From positions 4,526 through 68,525 of the forward strand of contig JANXUK010000067.1 of the NCBI GenBank assembly GCA_025356275.1: a stretch of 64,000 nucleotides of DNA, given 5' to 3'. Source of the DNA: Sphingomonadales bacterium. GTDB lineage: Bacteria; Pseudomonadota; Alphaproteobacteria; Sphingomonadales; Sphingomonadaceae. The translations under genes and the position numbers were made by a program. The notes below the pieces were generated by a model. That model ran no database searches. It was not told where the DNA came from and saw nothing but the letters and a program-made list of their open reading frames with translations. This document shows positions 5,841-38,060 of the stretch, one piece after another (position 1 is the stretch's first letter; every line of letters begins with the position of its first letter).

Positions 5841-6857
5841 TCAGCCACCCGTCATCGACATGTGGCGGGGCAGCGCGGGCGCCTCGCCGGCGCGACGAAT
5901 CGCGAAATGGTGCCGCTCGGGCTTGATCCGCATCGCGGTGTCCAGCGCCCCGGCCAGCGCCGCACCGGGGTCCGCCGAACGCAAGGCCGCGCGCAGATCG
6001 ACCTGCTCCACGCCCCCGAGGCAGGGGAACAGTTGGCCGGTTGCCGTGACCCGGATGCGGTTGCAGCCCTCGCAGAAATTGCCGGTCAGCGGCGTGATGA
6101 AGCCCAACCGCCCGCCGGTCTCGGCGACGCGGACGTAATGCGCCGGGCCGCCGCTGCGGTGGCTCTCCGGGGTCAGCGTGAAACGCTTTTCCAGCGCGGC
6201 ACGCACCGTCGTCAGCGGCAGGTAATGATCAAAACGGTCCCCATCGACCTCGCCCAGCGGCATCATCTCGATCAGCGTGATCTCGCAGGATTGCGCATGC
6301 GCCCAGCCGATCAGATCGGCGATCTCATCCTCATTCTCGCCGCGCAAAGCAACGGTGTTGAGCTTGACCGACAGCCCCGCCGCCTTGGCCGCCGCGATGC
6401 CCTCCAGCACCGCGGGCAGGCTGTCGCGCCGGGCGATGCGCGCGAAACGGTCGCGGTCCAGCGTATCGAGCGAGACATTGACCCGCCGCACCCCCGCCGC
6501 CGCCAAATCCCCGGCGAACTGCGCCAGACGCGTGCCATTGGTGGTGAGGGTCAGCTCCTCCAGCCCGTCGCCAACCTGCCGCCCCAAGGCGCGCACCAAC
6601 TCGATCATATCGCGCCGCACCAACGGCTCGCCCCCGGTCAGCCGGATTTTGGTGATGCCCCGCGCGATGAACCCCAGCGCCAGCTGGTGCAGCTCCTCAA
6701 GGCTGAGCACCTCGGATTTGGGCAGGAAGGTCTGCCGCTCGGGCATGCAATAGGTACAGCGCAGGTCGCAGCGATCGATCACCGACAGGCGCAGATAGCT
6801 GATGCGGCGATGGAATTGATCGACCAGCGGTTTGAAGGGCAATGCAGGGGCGTTCAT
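5841..6857 (-). CDS. moaA: GTP 3',8-cyclase (radical SAM)
   Basis: CDLRCTYC, TGGEPL, CEGCNRIR, C-terminal TGG; ATG 6857 preferred. Confidence 0.97.
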   Translation of the reverse strand: MNAPALPFKPLVDQFHRRISYLRLSVIDRCDLRCTYCMPERQTFLPKSEVLSLEELHQLALGFIARGITKIRLTGGEPLVRRDMIELVRALGRQVGDGLEELTLTTNGTRLAQFAGDLAAAGVRRVNVSLDTLDRDRFARIARRDSLPAVLEGIAAAKAAGLSVKLNTVALRGENEDEIADLIGWAHAQSCEITLIEMMPLGEVDGDRFDHYLPLTTVRAALEKRFTLTPESHRSGGPAHYVRVAETGGRLGFITPLTGNFCEGCNRIRVTATGQLFPCLGGVEQVDLRAALRSADPGAALAGALDTAMRIKPERHHFAIRRAGEAPALPRHMSMTGG

Positions 6858-28200: not shown

Positions 28201-28615
28201 ATGAGGCAGGTCAAGCGGCTGGGGCGGGACGATGTGAATCGCTGCTGCGTCCCAGCACCCCGATTCGCAGCCCTGCCCGGCGCAATTGCCCGTGATCGCG
28301 GCAGGCTGTCTGCACGAAATCCATGCCGATGCGGAGGATTGGGCCGCCGCCGCCTTCGCGCTGGCCGTGCCTGATACTGCAAGCGTGCGGTGCTGGTGCT
28401 GTGCAAGTCGCGGCAGGATGCGCCGCGCGGGCTGCTGTATGGCGCCGGGCTGGCGGAGTTAGGAATTACGCCGGGGCGGCTGCGGCTGGATAGGCGCGCG
28501 ATACGATGACACTGCTCCGTGCCGGGCTCCTGACGAAGCTGCCGCGCGGCGCTGTGGGTTAGCGCGGGCGAACGGCCGCGAACCTGCGGGTGCTGCTGCC
28601 CTCGCGGGGCTTCAT
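28201..28615 (+). pseudogene. Frameshifted, truncated imuA-like (RecA-like) relic
   Basis: Pieces in different frames: MRQVKRLGRDD..., LHEIHADAEDWAAAAFALAV, GLLYGAGLAELGITPGRL, ARDTMTLLRAGL; no imuB/dnaE2 follows. Confidence 0.65.
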
Positions 28616-28665
28616 TAGAGCATCGCGCCAAAAAAGTGGAAACCGGTTTTTGTCGATAAATCAGG
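28615..28665 (+). repeat. Degenerate CIR/RIME-like repeat
   Basis: ttagagcatcgcgccaaaaaagtggaaaccggtttttg matches reverse complement of 1041-1094. Confidence 0.7.
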
Positions 28666-28799
28666 CGACAGCACATGCCGGGAGCGAGACGGGTCAACCC
28701 GGCATCGCATCACATTCCGCTCCGCCTTGAGCGCTCCCGATAAAACCCTACTGCGAACTCCCCCCTTGCGCAGCTCTATGCCGCAGCGCACAATACCCC

Positions 28800-29426
28800 A
28801 TGCGCATTGCCATCGTCGATGAAAGCGCGCCGCGCGCTGCGGTGATCCGTGAGGGGCTGGCCCAGGTCGCCGAGTGCGAAATTTTCGTCGTAACCGAGCG
28901 GCGCGGCATGATTGCGCGCATCGCGGAGATCGCCCCCGACATCGTGCTGATGGACCTTGGCAATCCGTCGCGCGATGTTTTGGAGGAATATTTCGCGGTT
29001 AGCCGCGCGCTGGCTCGCCCCATCGCGATGTTCGTCGACGAATCGGACGAGGAGGCGATCGCCGCCTCGATCGACGCGGGGGTTTCGGCCTATATCGTCG
29101 CCGGGCTGGCGGCGCATCGCATTCGCCCGCTGCTCGATCTGGCGGTGCGGCGATTCAACGCGTTTGCCCGGCTTCAGGCCGACCTGAACGAGGCGCGCGG
29201 GCAATTGGCGGAGCGCGAAACCATCGACCGCGCCAAGCGCATCCTGATGGACAGCCGGCGCATCACCGAGCCGCAGGCCTATGCCGAAATGCGCGGGGCA
29301 GCGATGAGTCAGGGGCGCCGCATCGCCGATATTGCCGGCGCCGTGGTCACCGCGCATCGGCTGCTGGCCAATACCAGCGCCATCGCAGCCGCCGGCGAAA
29401 ATACGCCCGGAAAGGGACCGATATGA
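28800..29426 (+). CDS. nasT: ANTAR-domain antiterminator NasT
   Basis: REC-like N-terminus plus ANTAR IDRAKRILM...EPQAYAEMR..AMSQGRRI. Confidence 0.93.
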   Translation: MRIAIVDESAPRAAVIREGLAQVAECEIFVVTERRGMIARIAEIAPDIVLMDLGNPSRDVLEEYFAVSRALARPIAMFVDESDEEAIAASIDAGVSAYIVAGLAAHRIRPLLDLAVRRFNAFARLQADLNEARGQLAERETIDRAKRILMDSRRITEPQAYAEMRGAAMSQGRRIADIAGAVVTAHRLLANTSAIAAAGENTPGKGPI

Positions 29427-30640
29427 CGACCGAGCTTGCCATCGGCTTCCTGCCGCTGGTCGATGCCTGCCTGCCCATTCTGGCGCAGGAACATGGCTTT
29501 GCCGAGGCGGAAGGCCTCAGTCTGCGGCTCGTCAAGGACATGAGCTGGGCGACCGTGCTCGACCGGCTGCTGTATGGCCATACCGATGCCGCGCATCTGA
29601 TCGCGCCGCTGGCGATTGCCACCACGCTGGGGCGCGGTCGGCCCGCGCAGCCGCTGTCGGTGCCATTTGTGCTGGGGCTCAACGGCAATGCGATCACGAT
29701 GCGGCCCGATCTGGCGGCCGAGGTCAATCCAAGCGGCCGGTTGGGCGATCCGCGCGCGGTGGGTGCGGCTCTGGCGCAGGTCGTCGCAGCCCGAGCAGCA
29801 GCAGGTGGGGGTGCCGACCGGCTGCGGTTCGGTGTTGTTCAGCGCTATTCCAGCCATTCCTACATGCTGCGCTATTGGCTGGCCGCCTGCGGCATCCGGC
29901 CCGATATCGACGTTACCATCACCACCGTCGCGCCGCCGTTTTGTGCCGACGCGCTGGAGGCAGGCGAGGTCGATGCGATCTGCGTGGGTGAGCCGTGGAA
30001 CAGCGTCGCGGTCGGGCGCGGGGTGGGTGAGATCGTGCTGGCCACCGCGCAGATCTGGCGGCGCGGGGTGGAGAAGGTGCTGGCCCTGCGCGAGCCGGTG
30101 CTGGACGCACGGCGCGGCGATATCGAGGCGCTGATTCGCGCGCTGCGCCGGGCGGGTACGCATTTCGTCGATCCCGCCAATTGGGAGGCGAATGCGGCGA
30201 TCCTCGCCCGGTCGCACTATCTCGACGGAAATGAGGCGATGATTCGCAACGCGATCTCCGATCATCTGCTGCTGCGGAACGGCGGCGGCTTGGTGCATTA
30301 CCCTGATTTCATGTTCCAATACCGCGAGGCGGCGAACTTTCCCTGGGTCAGCCAGGCCGAGTGGCTGTATACCCAGATGGCCCGGTGGGAGGGCATGCCC
30401 TTCGACCCCGGCGATGCCGCGCGCGCCGCGCATGTGTTCCGCCCAGACGTATACCGCAGTGCACTCATCGGTGGCCCCGAGCCATTGCCCGGCGCCAGTT
30501 CCAAGGTCGAGGGCAGCGTGAGCCAACGCACCGCTGTGACCACCCAACAAGGCAATATCACCATGGAATCAAACAGCTTTTTCGACGGGCGCATATTCGA
30601 TCCGGTGGACCTGCGCGGATACATGGCAGCGATGCCATGA
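29423..30640 (+). CDS. nasS: Cytoplasmic nitrate sensor NasS (NrtA/CmpA-like, no signal peptide)
   Basis: IGFLPLVDA, SWATVLDRL, LGLNGNAIT, CVGEPWNS, ANFPW; overlaps nasT stop. Confidence 0.92.
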   Translation: MTTELAIGFLPLVDACLPILAQEHGFAEAEGLSLRLVKDMSWATVLDRLLYGHTDAAHLIAPLAIATTLGRGRPAQPLSVPFVLGLNGNAITMRPDLAAEVNPSGRLGDPRAVGAALAQVVAARAAAGGGADRLRFGVVQRYSSHSYMLRYWLAACGIRPDIDVTITTVAPPFCADALEAGEVDAICVGEPWNSVAVGRGVGEIVLATAQIWRRGVEKVLALREPVLDARRGDIEALIRALRRAGTHFVDPANWEANAAILARSHYLDGNEAMIRNAISDHLLLRNGGGLVHYPDFMFQYREAANFPWVSQAEWLYTQMARWEGMPFDPGDAARAAHVFRPDVYRSALIGGPEPLPGASSKVEGSVSQRTAVTTQQGNITMESNSFFDGRIFDPVDLRGYMAAMP

Positions 30641-30649
30641 GGTAAATTA

Positions 30650-30699
30650 TGCCGCAGTGCAAAAAACCGATTGCCACGAACGGGCGAATCACATAGTTT
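30650..30699 (+). promoter_or_regulatory. nas promoter 1: upstream TGCYGCAnYGCA box, TTGCC -35, GANTC in spacer, TAG-type -10
   Basis: Aligns element by element with 35334-35382 (ttgcc, gaatc 15 nt later, atag, ccagcg). Confidence 0.6.
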
Positions 30700-30720
30700 C
30701 GAACCAGCGAAAGTGATGCT

Positions 30721-30824
30721 GTCCAGCGTTGGGCGACGAAACATCCATCGCATTTTTGTTCAAATGAGTGGCAACGGCGCCGCCCGATCTGACCCTTGCC
30801 GGGTCTGTTCGTGGCGGTTTTTTT
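30721..30824 (+). promoter_or_regulatory. NasT antitermination leader 1 (two ANTAR hairpins plus overlapping terminator)
   Basis: P1 gtcc-AGCGTT-gggc (30721-34), P2 ggc-AACGGC-gcc (30770-81), both hexaloops A1/G4; P2 overlaps the 5' arm of terminator ending gttcgtggcggttttttt. Confidence 0.8.
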
Positions 30825-30885
30825 GCGTGCGTGGGGCACGCAGCCGGGGTCAGTTTCGGGGGGCCGAATTGTGCCGGAATGCGTA

Positions 30886-32577
30886 TCAGCGAAGGAGCAG
30901 CGCGGCGATCAGAGCCACGGCCAGTCCGGCGCTGATCAACTGCCACGCCAGCACCGGATTGCGCTCCACCAGCGCGGGGGCGCGGCGCGGGCGGACGGTC
31001 AGCGGCCCGCCGGCCTCCAGCGCGCGCAGCAACGCGATTACATCGCCGAAACGGGCATCGCGGGCCGGGGCCAGCGCGGTGGCGATGGCATCGTCGAGCC
31101 AGCTCGGGATCTCAGGGCGGTGGCTGGCCAGCGGGGGGGCGGCGGCGAATTTGGGCCGCTGAAACGCCTCCTGCTCACCGAACGGCATCCGGCCGGTGAA
31201 CCAACGGTACAGCGTGACGCCCAACGCGAATTGATCGGTCAGCGCGTCGCCGGCGTTACCGTGAAACTGCTCGGGCGCCATGTAGCCGGGGCTGCCGGGG
31301 ATCTCGTCGCCGGTGAAATCCTCGACGCGGGGCAATCGCGCCACCCCCAGATCGATCAGCCTGAGCCCGCCACCGCCGGTCAGCATCACGTTTTCGGGCT
31401 TGATATCGCGGTGGATTACCTCCAGCCGGTGCAGCGCCGCCACCGCCCGCGTCAGGCGGATCGCCTGCTCGATACCCATGCCCAAGGTCGGCAGGCGCCG
31501 CTCGATCCGCGCCGCCATCGTCTCACCATCGAGCAGCGGCTGCACCGCATAGAGCCCGGTCTGACGCTCGGGGCGCACCGGATACGCGGCGAGCACGAAG
31601 GGGCTGGTAACCCGCTGGGCGATCAGGATTTCGCGGGCGAAGGCCAGCCGCATCGCGCGGTCGCTGGCGGCGCGCGGGCGCGGGAATTTGAGCACTACCT
31701 CACCGCCGCCCTCGCGGTCGATGGCGACCAGCAGCACGGCGTAACGCCCCTCGCTCAGCACGCGGGTAACCGCAAACCCGTCGATGCTCTCGCCCGGCGC
31801 AGGCACCGCGATCACCGGCAGGCTGGACAGGCCGGTCAGGATACCATCGAGATCGGGCGCGGGCAGCCGGATCACATCGATGACCAGCGCGGTGGCATTG
31901 TCCTTGCCGCCCGCCGCCAAAGCCGCCTCGACCAGCTCCGCCGCCGTGGCCTCTGCCGAGGTTTGTCGCGCCAGAATTTGCGTGATGGCGCGCGCATTCA
32001 GGCTCCCATGCACCCCGTCGCTGGTCAGCAACAGCCGGTCACGCTCGGCCAGTTCGACCACGCCGTGATCGAGCCTCAGCTCCTCCTCCAGCCCCAGCGC
32101 GCGCAGCAAAACATGGCGCATATCGGGCTCCGGCCTGGTGTGATCATTGGTCAGGCAATGCAGCCGGCCACCGGCAAAGCGCCATGCGCGGCTGTCCCCC
32201 ACATGCACCACATGCGCTCGGCGCCCGCGCAGGGCCAGCCCGGTGAAGGTCGTGGCGCTACCGCCCTGGCCGTTGCCGCGCCCCTGCGCATGCAGCCAGC
32301 GGTTGTAGGCGGCAAGCGCGGTCTGCATCGCGCGGGCCGTGCCCAGCGTGTCGGGCATCTGGTAGAAGCCTTCGATCGCGGCACGCACCGCCAATTCGGC
32401 CGCCATCCGCCCCTCGCGCCCGCCGCTGACCCCATCGGCCACCGCCGCGATGATGCCGCGCGTGGCCCGCTGGTTGGCGGTGCCAAGATGGATCGCGCCG
32501 AAATCCTGATTGTCGGCGCGCGGGCCCACCGCGCTGGCAAAGCCCGCCGCCACCGCCAGTTCGCCCGCATCGCGCAT
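30886..32577 (-). CDS. Bifunctional PP2C-type phosphatase / Ser-Thr protein kinase with C-terminal TM
   Basis: PP2C: NQD, VADGVSG, HVGDSR, LLTSDG, KDN; kinase: VVLK, IHRDIKPEN, DLG, GSPGYMAPE; ATG 32577 with GAGGGG RBS. Confidence 0.92.
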   Translation of the reverse strand: MRDAGELAVAAGFASAVGPRADNQDFGAIHLGTANQRATRGIIAAVADGVSGGREGRMAAELAVRAAIEGFYQMPDTLGTARAMQTALAAYNRWLHAQGRGNGQGGSATTFTGLALRGRRAHVVHVGDSRAWRFAGGRLHCLTNDHTRPEPDMRHVLLRALGLEEELRLDHGVVELAERDRLLLTSDGVHGSLNARAITQILARQTSAEATAAELVEAALAAGGKDNATALVIDVIRLPAPDLDGILTGLSSLPVIAVPAPGESIDGFAVTRVLSEGRYAVLLVAIDREGGGEVVLKFPRPRAASDRAMRLAFAREILIAQRVTSPFVLAAYPVRPERQTGLYAVQPLLDGETMAARIERRLPTLGMGIEQAIRLTRAVAALHRLEVIHRDIKPENVMLTGGGGLRLIDLGVARLPRVEDFTGDEIPGSPGYMAPEQFHGNAGDALTDQFALGVTLYRWFTGRMPFGEQEAFQRPKFAAAPPLASHRPEIPSWLDDAIATALAPARDARFGDVIALLRALEAGGPLTVRPRRAPALVERNPVLAWQLISAGLAVALIAALLLR

Positions 32578-32678
32578 GGTCGCCGCCCCTCGAATTTCCC
32601 CGCGCCGCAACACCCGCGTCGCGCCCGCGTGAGGATCGCCCCTCAAATCATCCCGTCAAGTCTGAGAGGATTACTTCG

Positions 32679-33911
32679 ATGAATACTCCTTCCAAAGCCC
32701 CGCCGATGGCCGGTTTCTGGCAATCCGGCCATAGGCCCACATTGCTGGCGGCCTTTGCCTATTTCGACATTGCCTTCATGGTCTGGGTCATCCTCGGCCC
32801 GTTGGCGCCGATCATTTCCAAGCAGCTCCACCTCGATCCGGGCCAAAAGGGGCTGATGGTGGCGGTGCCCACCCTGGCCGGCGCGGTGCTGCGCATCGTC
32901 AACGGCCTGCTGGTCGACCGGATCGGCCCCAAGCTGACCGGCACGATCAGCCAGGTGGTGGTGATCTGCGGGCTTGCGACCGCTTGGCACTTCGGCATCA
33001 GCAGCTTTCAGGGCACATTGGCCCTGGGCGTGATCCTCGGCTTTGCCGGGGCGAGCTTTGCGGTGGCCCTGCCGCTGGCCAGCCGCTGGTACCCGCCCGA
33101 GCATCAGGGCAAGGCGATGGGCATCGCCGGCATGGGCAATTCGGGCACGGTGTTCGCATCGCTGTTCGCGGCCTTGCTGGCCAAGGCGTTCGGCTGGACC
33201 AATGTGCTGGGCCTTGCGCTGATCCCGTTGATCGCGGTGTTCATCATCTATCTGCTGGTCGCCAAGGACAGCCCGTCGCAGCCCGCGCCCAAGCCATTGT
33301 CGGCCTATGCCGCGGTGTTGAAGGAAGGCGATGCCTGGTGGTTCATGCTGTTCTATGGCGTGACGTTCGGGGGCTTTGTCGGCCTGTCCAGCTCGCTGCC
33401 GACGTTTTATGCCGATGGCTTCGGGGTCACCCCGGTGATCGCCGGTTATTGCACAGCCGCTGCCGTGTTCATGGGTTCGCTGCTGCGCCCGATGGGCGGC
33501 GCGCTGGCAGACCGGATGGGCGGCATAAAGACGCTGAGCTTCGTCTATATCGTGGCCGCCGCACTGCTGGCGGTGATTTCGATCGCGCCGCATGTGCTGC
33601 CGCTGATGGTGTTTCTGTTCATCCTGACGCTCGGCACGCTGGGGGTCGGCAATGGCGCGGTGTTTCAGCTGGTGCCGCAGCGGTTCCGCAGCGAGATCGG
33701 GGTGATGACCGGGCTGGTCGGCTTTGGCGGCGGGGTAGGGGGCTTCTACCTCGCCTTCTCGCTGGGCTATGCCAAGAAGCTGAGCGGCAGCGCTTCGCCA
33801 GGCTTCCTGATCTTTGCCGCGCTGGCGGCGCTGGCGCTGGTGGGGTTGACCTCGGTCAAGAGCCGGTGGCGGACCACATGGGGCGCTGCGCTGGTCGGCG
33901 CGCGGATCTGA
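32679..33911 (+). CDS. narK: MFS nitrate/nitrite transporter (NarK/NasA type)
   Basis: LGFAGASFAVALPLASRWY, AGMGNSG nitrate signatures; 12 TM. Confidence 0.93.
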   Translation: MNTPSKAPPMAGFWQSGHRPTLLAAFAYFDIAFMVWVILGPLAPIISKQLHLDPGQKGLMVAVPTLAGAVLRIVNGLLVDRIGPKLTGTISQVVVICGLATAWHFGISSFQGTLALGVILGFAGASFAVALPLASRWYPPEHQGKAMGIAGMGNSGTVFASLFAALLAKAFGWTNVLGLALIPLIAVFIIYLLVAKDSPSQPAPKPLSAYAAVLKEGDAWWFMLFYGVTFGGFVGLSSSLPTFYADGFGVTPVIAGYCTAAAVFMGSLLRPMGGALADRMGGIKTLSFVYIVAAALLAVISIAPHVLPLMVFLFILTLGTLGVGNGAVFQLVPQRFRSEIGVMTGLVGFGGGVGGFYLAFSLGYAKKLSGSASPGFLIFAALAALALVGLTSVKSRWRTTWGAALVGARI

Positions 33912-33917
33912 CGATCT

Positions 33918-33946
33918 GGCGGCCCCGGTAACACGCCGGGGCCGCC
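33918..33946. other. Perfect 11-bp GC hairpin without U-tract between narK and porin
   Basis: ggcggccccgg-taacacg-ccggggccgcc. Confidence 0.6.
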
Positions 33947-34024
33947 CCATGGCCGAGCCGAAAACGGCCGGGCTGGGCGGTCTCATCCAGAGCTTACAGA
34001 CTCCACTTCATGAGGGAATTTACG

Positions 34025-35302
34025 ATGATCACTCGCTTCACCGCGGCAGTGTTGCCGCTCGCCAGCCTGCTGCTAGCGCCAGCCGCGCATGCCGATACCA
34101 AGCCCGCCGCACCCGCTGGCATTTCCGTACTTATGGGCGATGGGCTGTTGTTCAGCCCGATCCTCGACGCCCGATTGCGTTGGGAGGATGTGCAGCAGCC
34201 GACCAAAAGCGCCGACGCCGTGACTATCCGCGCCCGCGCCGGTTTCGAGGTTCGCGACCCCGCCGCTCATCTGGCGCTGCTGGCCGAAATGTCCGGCGTG
34301 GTGGCGATCGATCAGGGTTACAACGCGCTGCCCTTCGCCGCAGCGACATCGCAATATCGCCCGGCCTATGCGGTGGTTGCCGATCCGGAGAATATCGCGC
34401 TCAACCGGCTGCAATTGCAGTACAGGACCAAGGCCATCGCGCTGACCGTCGGGCGTCAGCGGATCAATCTGGATGACGAACGCTGGGTCGGTTCGGCCGG
34501 GTGGCGCCAGAACGAGCAGACTTTCGATGCGGTGCGCGGCGAGGGCAAATTCGGCCCGCTGCTGGTGGATGGCACCTATTCGGACAGCCAGCGCACGATC
34601 TATGGCGGCGATGCTGACCCGCGCGTGCGCTATCGCGGGCGGTTCGTGTTCCTGGAGGCGGGGGTCAAATTCGGCACGTCGACGCTCAAGGGCTTCAGCT
34701 ATCTGCTCGACTACGATCCGACCGCTTTCAATTTCCAGACCAATTCGTCACAGACCTATGGCGCGCGCTTTGCCAGCACCGTGCCGGCCGGCAAAGTGCT
34801 GAGCCTCAGCCTGACCGCCAGCTATGCCCGCCAGACCAGCTATGCCAGCAACCCGTTCCACTATGGCGCCAGCTATCTCGCCGCCGAGACCGGGCTGGCC
34901 TATCGCGGGCTGACGTTCAAGGGCGGGTATGAACAGCTGGGCAGCGACCCCAATGCCACCGGCGGCGCGCGTGCGCTCCAGACCCCGATGGCCACGCTGC
35001 ACAAGTTCAACGGCTGGGCCGATCTGTTCCTCACCACCCCCGCCAAGGGCCTGCGCGACGCCTATCTGGGCGCAGGCTACAAATTCGCGCAGGTGAAGGC
35101 GCTTCCCGGGCTCAACGCGCAGGTGGTGTATCATCAGTTCAACAGCGACACGGGCGGGCTGAATTACGGGCACGAATGGGATGCCTCGGCCGGGTTCAAG
35201 CTGGGGCGCGTGACCTGGCTGATCAAATACGCCGATTACATCGCGCGGACCTTTGGCACCAACACCCGGAAGCTCTGGTTGCAGGCCGAATTCAGCCTGT
35301 GA
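34025..35302 (+). CDS. Alginate-export (AlgE-like) outer-membrane beta-barrel porin
   Basis: Signal peptide ending AAHA; ARLRWE, GRQRINLDDERWVG..GWRQNEQTFDA, HKFNGWAD; C-terminal aromatic barrel signature. Confidence 0.8.
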   Translation: MITRFTAAVLPLASLLLAPAAHADTKPAAPAGISVLMGDGLLFSPILDARLRWEDVQQPTKSADAVTIRARAGFEVRDPAAHLALLAEMSGVVAIDQGYNALPFAAATSQYRPAYAVVADPENIALNRLQLQYRTKAIALTVGRQRINLDDERWVGSAGWRQNEQTFDAVRGEGKFGPLLVDGTYSDSQRTIYGGDADPRVRYRGRFVFLEAGVKFGTSTLKGFSYLLDYDPTAFNFQTNSSQTYGARFASTVPAGKVLSLSLTASYARQTSYASNPFHYGASYLAAETGLAYRGLTFKGGYEQLGSDPNATGGARALQTPMATLHKFNGWADLFLTTPAKGLRDAYLGAGYKFAQVKALPGLNAQVVYHQFNSDTGGLNYGHEWDASAGFKLGRVTWLIKYADYIARTFGTNTRKLWLQAEFSL

Positions 35303-35333
35303 TCGCACGGTTCCCCGGCGCGCAGGCGCAAAT

Positions 35334-35382
35334 TGCTGCACCGCAATAGATGCTTGCCGTCGGGGCACGAATCGGATAGATA
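35334..35382 (+). promoter_or_regulatory. nas promoter 2 (paralogue of promoter 1)
   Basis: tgctgcaccgca...ttgccg...gaatc..atag; same spacing to leader as promoter 1. Confidence 0.6.
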
Positions 35383-35402
35383 TTCTGCCAGCGCGAACGG
35401 GC

Positions 35403-35510
35403 CATCCAACGCCGGATGTCCAACAGGTTTCACGCATATCGTAACATTGCGTGGCAAAGATGCCGCCCGGTTCGCGCCCCTTCTCCGGGGCCGGTTCGTG
35501 GCGGCTTTTT
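35403..35510 (+). promoter_or_regulatory. NasT antitermination leader 2 upstream of nirB
   Basis: P1 catcc-AACGCC-ggatg (35403-18), P2 ggc-AAAGAT-gcc (35453-64), terminator ending gttcgtggcggcttttt. Confidence 0.85.
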
Positions 35511-35534
35511 GTTGTGCGCGCTTGGAGAACCCTC

Positions 35535-38060
35535 GTGAACGCTCCCGCCACTTTTCCTGATAGTCGCATCCCCCGCCCCGATGGCACTTTGCCGCAGCGG
35601 CTGGTGGTGGTGGGCAATGGCATGGCCGGGTGCCGCGCGGTGGAGGAAATTCTGGCGCGCGATCCTGCGCGCTATGCCATCACAATTTTCGGCGCCGAAC
35701 CAAGGGTCAATTACAACCGGATCATGCTGTCGCCGGTGCTGGCCGGTGAGAAGACCTTCGACGAAATCGTGATAAATGATGCGGCGTGGTATGCTGATAA
35801 TGGCATCACGCTGCTCTCGGGCGATGCGGTGGTGGCGATCGATCGCGCCGCCAAAACCGTGATCGCGGCATCGGGGCGCGTCGAGGCGTATGATCTGCTG
35901 CTGCTGGCCACCGGGTCGGACCCGTTCATCATCCCGGTGCCGGGCAAGGATCTGGCCGGGATGGTCACGTTCCGCGATCTGGACGATGTCGACAAGATGG
36001 TCCGCGCGGCGGACAGCGGCGGCTCCGCCGTGGTGATCGGCGGCGGGCTGCTCGGGCTGGAAGCGGCCCATGGGCTCAGCTTGCGCGGCATGAAGGTGAC
36101 CGTTATCCACCTGATGCCCACGCTGATGGAGCGGCAGCTGGACGAGGCGGCGGGCTGGCTGCTCAAGGCCGAACTGGAGGCGCGCGGGCAATCCATCCTG
36201 ACCGGCGCCGATACCGCCGAGATCATCGGCAAGGACGGGCATGTCTCGGCGGTGCGCCTGAAGGACGGCCGGGTGATCGACGCCGATATCGTGGTGATGG
36301 CGGTCGGCATCCGCCCCGCCACCGCGCTGGCCAAACAGGCTGGGCTGGAGGTCGGGCGCGGCATTCTGGTTGATGATCACATGGTGACCTCGGACCCCGC
36401 CGTGCTGGCGGTGGGCGAATGTGTCGAGCATCGCGGCACCTGCTACGGGCTGGTCGCGCCGCTGTGGGATATGTGCCGCGCTTTGGCCGATCATGCCACC
36501 GGCGCGCCGACCGGCTACGAGGGCTCGGTCACCGCGACCAAGCTCAAGGTTTCGGGGATCGAGGTGTTCTCTGCGGGCGATTTCTCGGGCGGCGACGGGT
36601 GCGAGGATATCGTGATGCGCGATGCCGCGCGCGGGCTCTACAAGCGGGTGGTGGTCAAGGGTGACCGGCTGATCGGGGCGGTGCTCTATGGCGATACCGC
36701 CGATGGCGCGTGGTATTTCGACCTGCTGCGCAAAAGCGTGGACGTATCGGACATCCGCGAGGCGCTGATTTTCGGGCAGGCGTTCGCATCCGGCGGGGGC
36801 GCCCTGCTGGACCCTAATTCGGCCGTTGCCGCCCTCTCGGACGATGCCGAGATCTGCGGTTGCAACGGCGTTTCCAAGGGTAAGGTCGTCAGCTGCATTG
36901 CGCGCGGCGCCCACAGCATCGACGCGGTACGCGCCGGCTGCAAGGCCTCGGCCAGCTGCGGCAGCTGCACCGGCTTGGTCGAGAGCCTGCTGGCCGTCAC
37001 TTTGGGCGATCAATTCGCGGGGGAGCGCGGCGCGCGTACCGTCTGCAAATGCACCAGCTTCACCCACGACGACGTGCGCCGGCTGATCCTGGAAAAGCAC
37101 CTGAAAGCGATCCCCGCGGTGATGCAGGCGCTGCATTGGAGCACGCCGGATGGCTGTGCCTCGTGCCGACCGGCGCTGAATTACTACCTCGTCTGCGCAT
37201 GGCCCGGCGAATATGACGACGACCAGCAGAGCCGCTTCGTCAATGAACGGATGCACGCCAATATCCAGAAGGATGGGACCTATTCGGTGGTGCCCCGGAT
37301 GTGGGGGGGCCTCACCAATCCGCGCGAATTGCGCGCGATCGCCGATGTGGTGGAGAAATATAACGCGCCGATGGTCAAGGTCACGGGCGGCCAGCGGCTC
37401 GATATCTTTGGCATCAGGAAGGAGGACCTGCCCGCGGTCTGGGCCGATCTCAATGCGGCGGGGATGGTGTCGGGGCACGCCTATGGCAAGTCGCTGCGCA
37501 CCGTCAAAACCTGCGTCGGGTCCGAATGGTGCCGCTTCGGCACGCAGGATTCCACCGGGCTGGGCGTCCAGATCGAGCATATGACCTGGGGCAGCTGGAT
37601 GCCGCACAAGTTCAAGATCGCCGTCTCTGGCTGCCCGCGCAATTGCGCCGAGGCGACGATCAAGGACTTCGGCATCATCTGCGTCGACAGCGGTTATGAA
37701 CTGCACGTCGGCGGCAATGGCGGTATCAAGGTGCGGGTCACCGACCTGCTCGGCAAGGTCGCGACCGAGGCCGAGGCGATGGCGCTGTGTGCCGCCTTCA
37801 TCCAGCTCTACCGTGAGCAGGCCTGGTATCTGGAGCGTACCGCGCCGTGGATCGAGCGGGTCGGGCTGGAGCATGTCAAGGCCGGGTTGTTCGACGATCC
37901 GGGCGCGATTGCGGCATTGGCCGCGCGCTTCGCCCATTCGCAAAGCTTTATGCAGGATGATCCCTGGGCCAAACGCGCCGCCGGAGCCGATGCCGACTTG
38001 CACCAGCATCTGGCCGAAGTGCGCCCGCTGGAGTTGGCCCCGATGGAGTTGGTGCGATGA
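35535..38060 (+). CDS. nirB: Assimilatory nitrite reductase large subunit
   Basis: GNGMAG, GGGLLGLEAA, two BFD-like CxC..CxxC, siroheme KTCVGSEWC and SGCPRNC; GTG 35535 with GGAG RBS. Confidence 0.97.
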   Translation: MNAPATFPDSRIPRPDGTLPQRLVVVGNGMAGCRAVEEILARDPARYAITIFGAEPRVNYNRIMLSPVLAGEKTFDEIVINDAAWYADNGITLLSGDAVVAIDRAAKTVIAASGRVEAYDLLLLATGSDPFIIPVPGKDLAGMVTFRDLDDVDKMVRAADSGGSAVVIGGGLLGLEAAHGLSLRGMKVTVIHLMPTLMERQLDEAAGWLLKAELEARGQSILTGADTAEIIGKDGHVSAVRLKDGRVIDADIVVMAVGIRPATALAKQAGLEVGRGILVDDHMVTSDPAVLAVGECVEHRGTCYGLVAPLWDMCRALADHATGAPTGYEGSVTATKLKVSGIEVFSAGDFSGGDGCEDIVMRDAARGLYKRVVVKGDRLIGAVLYGDTADGAWYFDLLRKSVDVSDIREALIFGQAFASGGGALLDPNSAVAALSDDAEICGCNGVSKGKVVSCIARGAHSIDAVRAGCKASASCGSCTGLVESLLAVTLGDQFAGERGARTVCKCTSFTHDDVRRLILEKHLKAIPAVMQALHWSTPDGCASCRPALNYYLVCAWPGEYDDDQQSRFVNERMHANIQKDGTYSVVPRMWGGLTNPRELRAIADVVEKYNAPMVKVTGGQRLDIFGIRKEDLPAVWADLNAAGMVSGHAYGKSLRTVKTCVGSEWCRFGTQDSTGLGVQIEHMTWGSWMPHKFKIAVSGCPRNCAEATIKDFGIICVDSGYELHVGGNGGIKVRVTDLLGKVATEAEAMALCAAFIQLYREQAWYLERTAPWIERVGLEHVKAGLFDDPGAIAALAARFAHSQSFMQDDPWAKRAAGADADLHQHLAEVRPLELAPMELVR

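Follow-up and report, generated by a model that had tools for sequence, protein, structure and literature searches.

How does a nitrate-responsive leader serve a transporter gene when the first gene behind it lies on the opposite strand? The question is raised by a stretch of 64,000 nucleotides from a Sphingomonadales bacterium (contig JANXUK010000067.1 of assembly GCA_025356275.1; the whole stretch is called the window below), which carries a Novosphingobium nitrate-assimilation cluster. A NasT/ANTAR leader on the + strand is followed there by a gene for a PP2C phosphatase/Ser-Thr kinase fusion on the minus strand, and then by the nitrate/nitrite transporter gene narK, again on the + strand. 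A first-pass annotation of this DNA had proposed that a transcript released by the leader crosses the kinase gene in antisense and carries narK. Comparison with related genomes lends strong support to such a transcript, with one amendment: the antisense stretch would not be bare RNA, as it holds a conserved open reading frame (ORF) of 603 codons. We hypothesize, at a probability of roughly two thirds, that the region forms the first part of a noncontiguous (excludon-like) operon gated by nitrate and composed of promoter, NasT/ANTAR leader, antisense ORF, narK and a porin gene, in which the antisense frame is kept translatable.

The leader and the genes behind it

The elements between nasS and the end of narK are these:

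30650..30699, + strand: putative leader promoter, consisting of a TGCCGCAGTGCA box (30650-30661), a -35-like TTGCCA (30671-30676) and CGAATCACATAG (30685-30696), recognised by the recurrence of these motifs in the same order
30720..30735, + strand: ANTAR hairpin P1, tgtcc-AGCGTT-gggcg, hexaloop AGCGTT (sequence, covariation)
30768..30783, + strand: ANTAR hairpin P2, gtggc-AACGGC-gccgc, hexaloop AACGGC (sequence, folding)
30780..30824, + strand: intrinsic terminator with a 5' arm common with P2, stem 30780-30817, seven T at 30818-30824 (folding)
30858..30873, + strand: start of the antisense ORF (GTG 30871) with a ribosome-binding-like GGGGGG (comparison across loci)
30871..32682, + strand: antisense "conduit" ORF, from GTG 30871 to TGA 32680-32682, 603 codons, codon-aligned opposite the kinase
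30886..32577, minus strand: PP2C phosphatase/Ser-Thr kinase fusion (Pfam PP2C_2 4.4e-14, Pkinase 2.3e-27)
32611..32660, minus strand: motifs of the gap between kinase and narK (an imperfect palindrome, CGATCCTC and CTTGACG, in minus-strand reading), conserved in all inverted-kinase loci
32679..33911, + strand: narK, MFS nitrate/nitrite transporter, with the Shine-Dalgarno (SD) motif GAGAGGA at 32664-32670 (Pfam MFS_1 6.8e-44)

In sequence, the first leader lacks none of the features of a NasT/ANTAR target known from the NalA leader, which carries two tandem hexaloop hairpins with A at loop position 1 and G at position 4 (PMC10783516). P1 and P2 both have hexaloops with A and G at these positions, as do their counterparts in 46 aligned leaders, and the 3' arm of P2 is at the same time the 5' arm of the terminator: GCCGC(C) at 30779-30784 pairs either within P2 or with GGCGG at 30813-30817. 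The terminator folds with a dG of -25 kcal/mol (z -4.1), and 0 of 200 shuffles fold equally well. Its cognate regulator and nitrate sensor, nasT (ANTAR and receiver domains) and nasS (NMT1_2), are encoded immediately upstream.

A covariance model (R1) built from 46 leaders of this type gives 99.1 bits to the leader facing the kinase (30720-30824, + strand) and 92.5 bits to the nirB leader, which bears out the initial description of a complete dual-hairpin leader as intact as the one before nirB. Within the 46 leaders four of the five P1 pairs covary (both sides changed in 42 cells, a value that 0 of 500 shuffles reached), while the invariance of P2 says little, because the leaders were gathered with a P2 pattern. 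Scanning of the 3.18-Mb genome with the model found no third copy, and the 101-bp gap between kinase and narK gave no match to it; Pfam and the covariance model thus confirm a minus-strand kinase gene followed by narK with a leaderless gap, as first annotated. Rfam displays no relevant match to the leader at gathering or E<=10 thresholds; since the nirB leader is likewise without a match, the library seems to hold no fitting model.

The promoter assigned to the leader in the first reading is retained here as a conserved motif and putative promoter only. Its motifs precede other leaders in this and in related genomes in the same order, but a generic sigma-70 scan of 28400-35600 found no promoter; the same scan missed the terminator of the first leader. 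Behind the leader, the T-run is followed by GCGTGCGCG, GGAG, a spacing of about 8 nt and a start codon, a layout matching that after the nirB leader.

Loci for comparison came from the genome collection (26), and more were added by searching 121 genomes for narK. Within the genus the kinase has a patchy distribution, 5 of the 41 genomes first drawn having it, and where it adjoins narK it is always inverted relative to narK. More than 30 genomes, in three gene orders, keep a kinase gene on the opposite strand between the leader and narK-porin. Cultured strains are among the carriers, such as Novosphingobium capsulatum NBRC 12533 (L032), N. olei TW-4 (L033) and N. anseongense PS1R-30 (L018). Misassembly or a local inversion, a concern raised with the first annotation, is ruled out by the identical orientation in more than 30 independent assemblies.

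The commonest order is nasT-nasS-leader-kinase(-)-narK-porin-leader-nirBD. One genome (G011) has the porin gene, with its own leader, between nasS and the kinase, and carries a further complete promoter and leader between porin and the kinase 3' end, from which we conclude that the leader travels with the kinase(-)/narK module. Another (L014, a Porphyrobacter-labelled metagenome-assembled genome) has the porin gene abutting the kinase 3' end with no leader between them. A second Novosphingobium subclade (L037, L124-L128; 52-57% kinase identity) displays the kinase-narK pair flipped relative to nasT-nasS, which puts the kinase in the orientation of nasT-nasS and makes narK divergent; the region upstream of narK on its strand then lies between the kinase 3' end and nasT, and both the antisense ORF and its coupling to narK persist. 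In three different gene orders the control region of narK is found beyond the kinase 3' end, never in the gap between kinase and narK. In Novosphingobium genomes lacking the kinase, whose order is nasS-leader-narK-porin, about 30 nt separate the leader from the start of narK. This placement of the same leader type directly before narK indicates that the leader belongs to narK. In kinase-less genomes (L115, L117-L123) the ANTAR leader directly 5' of narK is a divergent one (P2 loop AAAGCC), which model R1 barely detects (24 bits in L123).

Both ends of the antisense ORF are conserved as well. In the 32 inverted-kinase genomes with the start region readable, an in-frame ATG or GTG lies 3' of the terminator, no more than 27 nt before the kinase stop triplet (range 6-27, in most cases 15-18); here GTG 30871 stands 15 nt before TCA 30886-30888, opposite the kinase stop codon. 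A GGAG-like motif precedes the start by 8-13 nt within surrounding bases that are not conserved, and the mean anti-SD pairing at the start is -6.5 kcal/mol, vs -3.0 kcal/mol for random windows (25 loci). One flipped-subclade genome beyond the 32, L127, has only a TTG near the kinase stop triplet, plus a distant GTG.

At the other end, wherever the frame is intact (all loci but L031), the ORF stop falls in the range from -5 to +26 nt relative to the narK ATG. The junction takes the form ATGA (here, 32679-32682), TAA-nn-ATG, or an ATG with the stop following within 7-26 nt. In L014 the start of the ORF overlaps the porin stop codon as well (TGATG, 5990-6000 in flipped coordinates), and porin, antisense ORF and narK would there be a chain of coupled cistrons behind one leader. 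A conserved start together with a conserved end would make sense only if the frame is translated.

Translation of the frame is also part of the reading in which the nitrate-induced antisense transcript, protected by ribosomes, mainly silences the kinase and narK expression is secondary. Convergent promoters and an overlap of about 1.7 kb are what excludons and noncontiguous operons with reciprocal repression display (PMC7154746), but the exact stop-start overlap with narK, and the leader directly before narK in relatives without the kinase, indicate that narK expression is the selected output. We regard silencing as the main function as unlikely, noting that the two roles are not mutually exclusive.

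Stop codons in the antisense frame

The codons TTA, CTA and TCA in the kinase gene are stops in the antisense frame. Of the three + frames, the one in codon register with the kinase has no stop between leader and narK in any genome but L031, and the other two contain 8-17 stops. Pooled counts give 1 TTA, CTA or TCA in 25 kinases (13,655 codons) vs 156 in neighbouring genes (42,906 codons), with a Fisher test against the other codons ending in A (NNA) giving 1.8e-19 without phylogenetic correction. Expectations were also calculated for each gene from the codons that the remaining genes of its locus use for Leu and Ser. The sums of TTA, CTA and TCA, with the kinase row covering 27 inverted genes, are:

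kinase: observed 1, expected 53.4
narK: observed 25, expected 37.2
nasS: observed 33, expected 29.3
nasT: observed 24, expected 16.0
porin: observed 20, expected 27.6
nirB: observed 49, expected 39.9

All other NNA codons have equal within-family fractions in kinase and neighbours, respectively: GCA.072 and.073, GAA.454 and.458, ATA.031 and.030, ACA.040 and.043, GTA.034 and.036. Relatives with a GC content at third codon positions (GC3) of 0.66-0.78 have 5-16 antisense-stop codons per 1000 in the neighbour genes and none in the kinase, at an expectation of 4-6.5 per kinase gene. In the five genomes added from the flipped subclade, the kinase is likewise free of such codons.

Shared ancestry is no explanation for the depletion, because synonymous sites are heavily turned over: the median synonymous difference (pS) between kinases is 0.54 (0.42-0.57 among low-GC lineages), and 40-66% of shared Leu/Ser columns use different codons in the low-GC lineages. 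The kinase orthologues of Brevundimonas, which are co-oriented with their neighbours, do carry TTA, CTA and TCA (32 in 24 genes), as do more distant homologues. This data suggests that the antisense frame is kept free of stops by selection.

What such selection acts on is a separate question, as the frame could be a true antisense overlapping gene for a protein of about 600 residues with its own role in nitrate assimilation. The conserved start and ribosome site, the stop-codon depletion and the operon coupling would all be expected of such a gene, and Pseudomonas aeruginosa is reported to have long antisense genes that are translated (PMC8850804). The translation itself argues otherwise. It is rich in Arg (14%), Ala (14%), Gly (13%) and Gln (10%) over 603 residues and has no Pfam match, and it is 35-49% identical between genomes in which the kinases are 57-76% identical. 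AlphaFold on an alignment of 24 sequences yields a mean predicted local distance difference test score (pLDDT) of 27.4, a predicted template modelling score (pTM) of 0.13 and no secondary structure. An OLGenie-like partition of substitutions gives dNN/dNS 0.95 [0.77-1.13] (controls 0.52-0.89) and dSN/dSS 1.33, with no difference from the antisense frames of narK, nasS, nirB and porin, and the synonymous rate of the kinase is not reduced, its pS being about equal to that of its neighbours. A functional antisense protein was accordingly rejected on the negative results from Pfam, AlphaFold and the OLGenie-like analysis; like silencing, it is an unlikely reading, if anything a shade more so. Selection would then act on openness, initiation site and stop-start junction, not on the peptide.

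The reverse assignment, with the kinase as the shadow frame, was rejected too: the kinase has Pfam domains, and its nonsynonymous difference (pN) is much lower than its pS, as under ordinary purifying selection.

That the ORF is a compositional "shadow ORF" of a GC-rich gene, with narK served by its own promoter and the leader either an orphan or only attenuating read-through from nasTS, may draw on the many genes of this genome with fully open antisense frames, but it is very improbable, given that the depletion is confined to three antisense-stop codons and to the kinase (1 vs 53.4) also at GC3 0.66-0.78, that start, ribosome site and stop-ATG overlap are conserved within otherwise variable flanking DNA, and that the leader follows the module as gene order changes.

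A proposed path of transcription and translation

Under the noncontiguous-operon model we propose the following course of events. NasS would release NasT, which would bind P1 and P2, the terminator would not form, and RNA polymerase would enter the oppositely oriented PP2C-kinase gene. About 45 nt past the terminator, the ribosome site and GTG 30871 would begin translation of the 603-codon frame. This frame ends in ATGA on the narK start codon, where ribosomes could be passed to narK by termination-reinitiation. The polypeptide itself appears to be without function.

Untranslated nascent RNA, and antisense RNA especially, is generally regarded as a substrate of Rho. Translation of the 1.8-kb antisense stretch would likely allow escape from Rho-dependent termination. 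Rho is encoded in this genome (Rho_RNA_bind match of 108.9 bits in a 419-aa frame on contig C34).

As a side effect, + strand transcription and translation would probably interfere with the convergent kinase transcript, so that kinase and transporter would be anti-correlated. CTTGACG, about 16 nt and CGATCCTC in the gap (minus strand) fit an alphaproteobacterial -35 and a weak -10 for the kinase, and may form a candidate promoter and 5' untranslated region. If this promoter is real, two convergent promoters lie about 1.8 kb apart, and + strand induction should interfere with kinase expression; an excludon-like interference as described in PMC7154746 is plausible. The palindrome of the gap forms no significant RNA hairpin in this genome, and stays a conserved DNA motif.

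Several points weigh against the proposed operon. In this genome alone (GC3 about 0.85) the open antisense frame is unremarkable, nirB and narK likewise having zero antisense stops; the depletion signal comes from the relatives of lower GC. The genomes are related, and the P values overstate independence, so that true significance is lower than quoted; chance is unlikely despite this kinship, because the contrast is codon-specific and synonymous turnover heavy. In the metagenome-assembled genome L031 a CTA in the kinase (flipped coordinate 3229) gives a TAG after 209 codons of the antisense ORF.

The flipped subclade has no recognisable terminator-type leader, and NasT gating is for this reason not universal. 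An additional narK promoter may lie within the kinase gene. The role of Rho is an assumption based on how Rho acts in general. The comparison shows how the locus is built and conserved, that selection acts at the level of codons, and that the ORF protein is unconstrained; that the + strand unit is transcribed, translated and induced by nitrate, that Rho takes part and that the kinase is repressed is what we infer.

The break in L031 is the only one among 33 genomes; the CTA could be a sequencing error or a real loss. Regarding the flipped subclade, L037 (7700-7900, minus strand) and L124-L128 have only one ANTAR-like hairpin, CGGC-AATGGC-GCCG, which lies near GGAG/ATG and lacks a terminator. 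It may be a translational rather than a transcriptional target of NasT, and coupling to NasT may differ in this group.

Around the central elements the cluster contains the following features:

28800..29426, + strand: nasT, receiver and ANTAR antiterminator (Pfam ANTAR 7.9e-15, Response_reg)
29423..30640, + strand: nasS, NMT1-like nitrate/nitrite sensor (Pfam NMT1_2 4.1e-60)
34010..35302, + strand: outer-membrane porin-like gene (Pfam Alginate_exp 1.9e-07)
35390..35519, + strand: second ANTAR leader, 5' of nirBD-nasA (covariance model 92.5 bits, sequence)

The porin gene is probably in the same transcript as narK, the covariance model finding no leader between them. A strong GC hairpin without a T-run, GGCGGCCCCGG-N7-CCGGGGCCGCC, lies between the two genes (33918-33946) and has a counterpart at the corresponding position in G021; it may serve processing or stabilisation. 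After the second leader the gene order is nirB, nirD, nasA and a cobA-like gene. The start of the longest nirB ORF (35451) falls inside this leader, and the true nirB start is likely GTG 35535, downstream of the terminator and behind GGAGA at 35524-35528. A TGCYGCANYGCA box, followed by a CGAATCAC (GANTC-containing) element, occurs upstream of nasT and of both leaders (28779-28797, 30650-30661, 35333-35345), and is probably a shared activator site.

The PP2C-kinase protein has a C-terminal hydrophobic segment in its translation, probably a transmembrane segment. A co-oriented paralogue of the kinase is present in other Novosphingobium genomes. The closest orthologues outside the genus (47-52% identity) are found in Brevundimonas loci (L038-L062, e.g. 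L046 4389-8674), in a co-oriented array of rhodanese, TauE (sulfite exporter), kinase and outer-membrane protein genes. Anion transporters may in general have a phosphatase-kinase of this family as a partner; a literature search on the nitrate-transporter kinase (PA1782-type) found nothing useful.

Relation to known systems and meaning

Noncontiguous operons and excludons are exemplified by menE-menC-MW1733-ytkD-MW1731 of Staphylococcus aureus and by the excludons of Listeria, and conditional terminators (riboswitches) that gate antisense RNAs have been described in the same review (PMC7154746). The Novosphingobium locus resembles these in an opposite-strand gene interspersed in an operon, in full-length overlap and in the reciprocal interference to be expected, with co-transcription predicted here from comparison. 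In such operons, reciprocal repression works through RNA polymerase collision and RNase III. In the noncontiguous operon the overlap is an internal untranslated region (PMC7154746), whereas the overlap at this locus is an ORF of 603 codons that has a start of its own, is selected to be open and is coupled to narK.

The overlaps of olg1 and olg2 in Pseudomonas aeruginosa (957 and 1542 nt) were called the longest yet proposed, and show reduced synonymous and nonsynonymous change, with support from Ribo-seq and mass spectrometry (Kreitmeier et al. 2022, PMC8850804). Common to both cases are a long ORF antisense inside an annotated gene, a GC-rich bacterium, and stop depletion beyond expectation as evidence for selection. 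Unlike olg1 and olg2, the present ORF overlaps all 1692 nt of the kinase, has no amino-acid constraint and an obvious operon role, and is predicted from sequence.

NasT/NasS antitermination leaders have been described for nirBD of Pseudomonas putida with NalA (PMC10783516) and for nasA of Paracoccus denitrificans (PMC3795266). Known NasT leaders directly precede the structural gene that they regulate; the leader facing the kinase has as its first downstream cistron an antisense frame that passes through another gene. A further likeness is the immunity region of phage P4, where translation of the nested eta/kil frame is said to prevent premature transcription termination (reportedly work of Forti et al. 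from 1999). There too, translation rather than a product would let downstream transcription continue; the P4 case differs in its phage/satellite context, in control by a small antisense RNA, and in a frame that is not opposite a full-length cellular gene. The arrangement of the antisense ORF belongs to no single one of these systems.

We are somewhat inclined to see in it a class of frame of its own (a conduit frame), selected only for being open and translated, which takes an operon through a full-length gene on the opposite strand. With about 1.8 kb and complete overlap, the ORF would exceed in length every other bacterial antisense ORF for which there is evidence of selection, and no earlier noncontiguous operon would have an antisense segment that is translated and translationally coupled at both ends.

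It is debated whether a long antisense ORF in a GC-rich bacterium can ever be anything but a statistical shadow. At this locus two kinds of selection come apart: stops are very strongly selected against, and the contexts of start and stop show conservation, while the protein sequence is unconstrained. For annotation this means that stop-codon depletion alone is no proof of a functional overlapping protein. The hypothesis is cleanly testable, since single changes that are synonymous in the kinase create antisense stops.

If it is true, an antisense frame is maintained for the act of translation itself, which would explain how an operon transcript survives against Rho while crossing 1.7 kb of an opposite-strand gene. 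For Novosphingobium, the model would identify how narK is tied to NasT, and predicts that the transporter-associated phosphatase-kinase would be turned off as the transporter is turned on.

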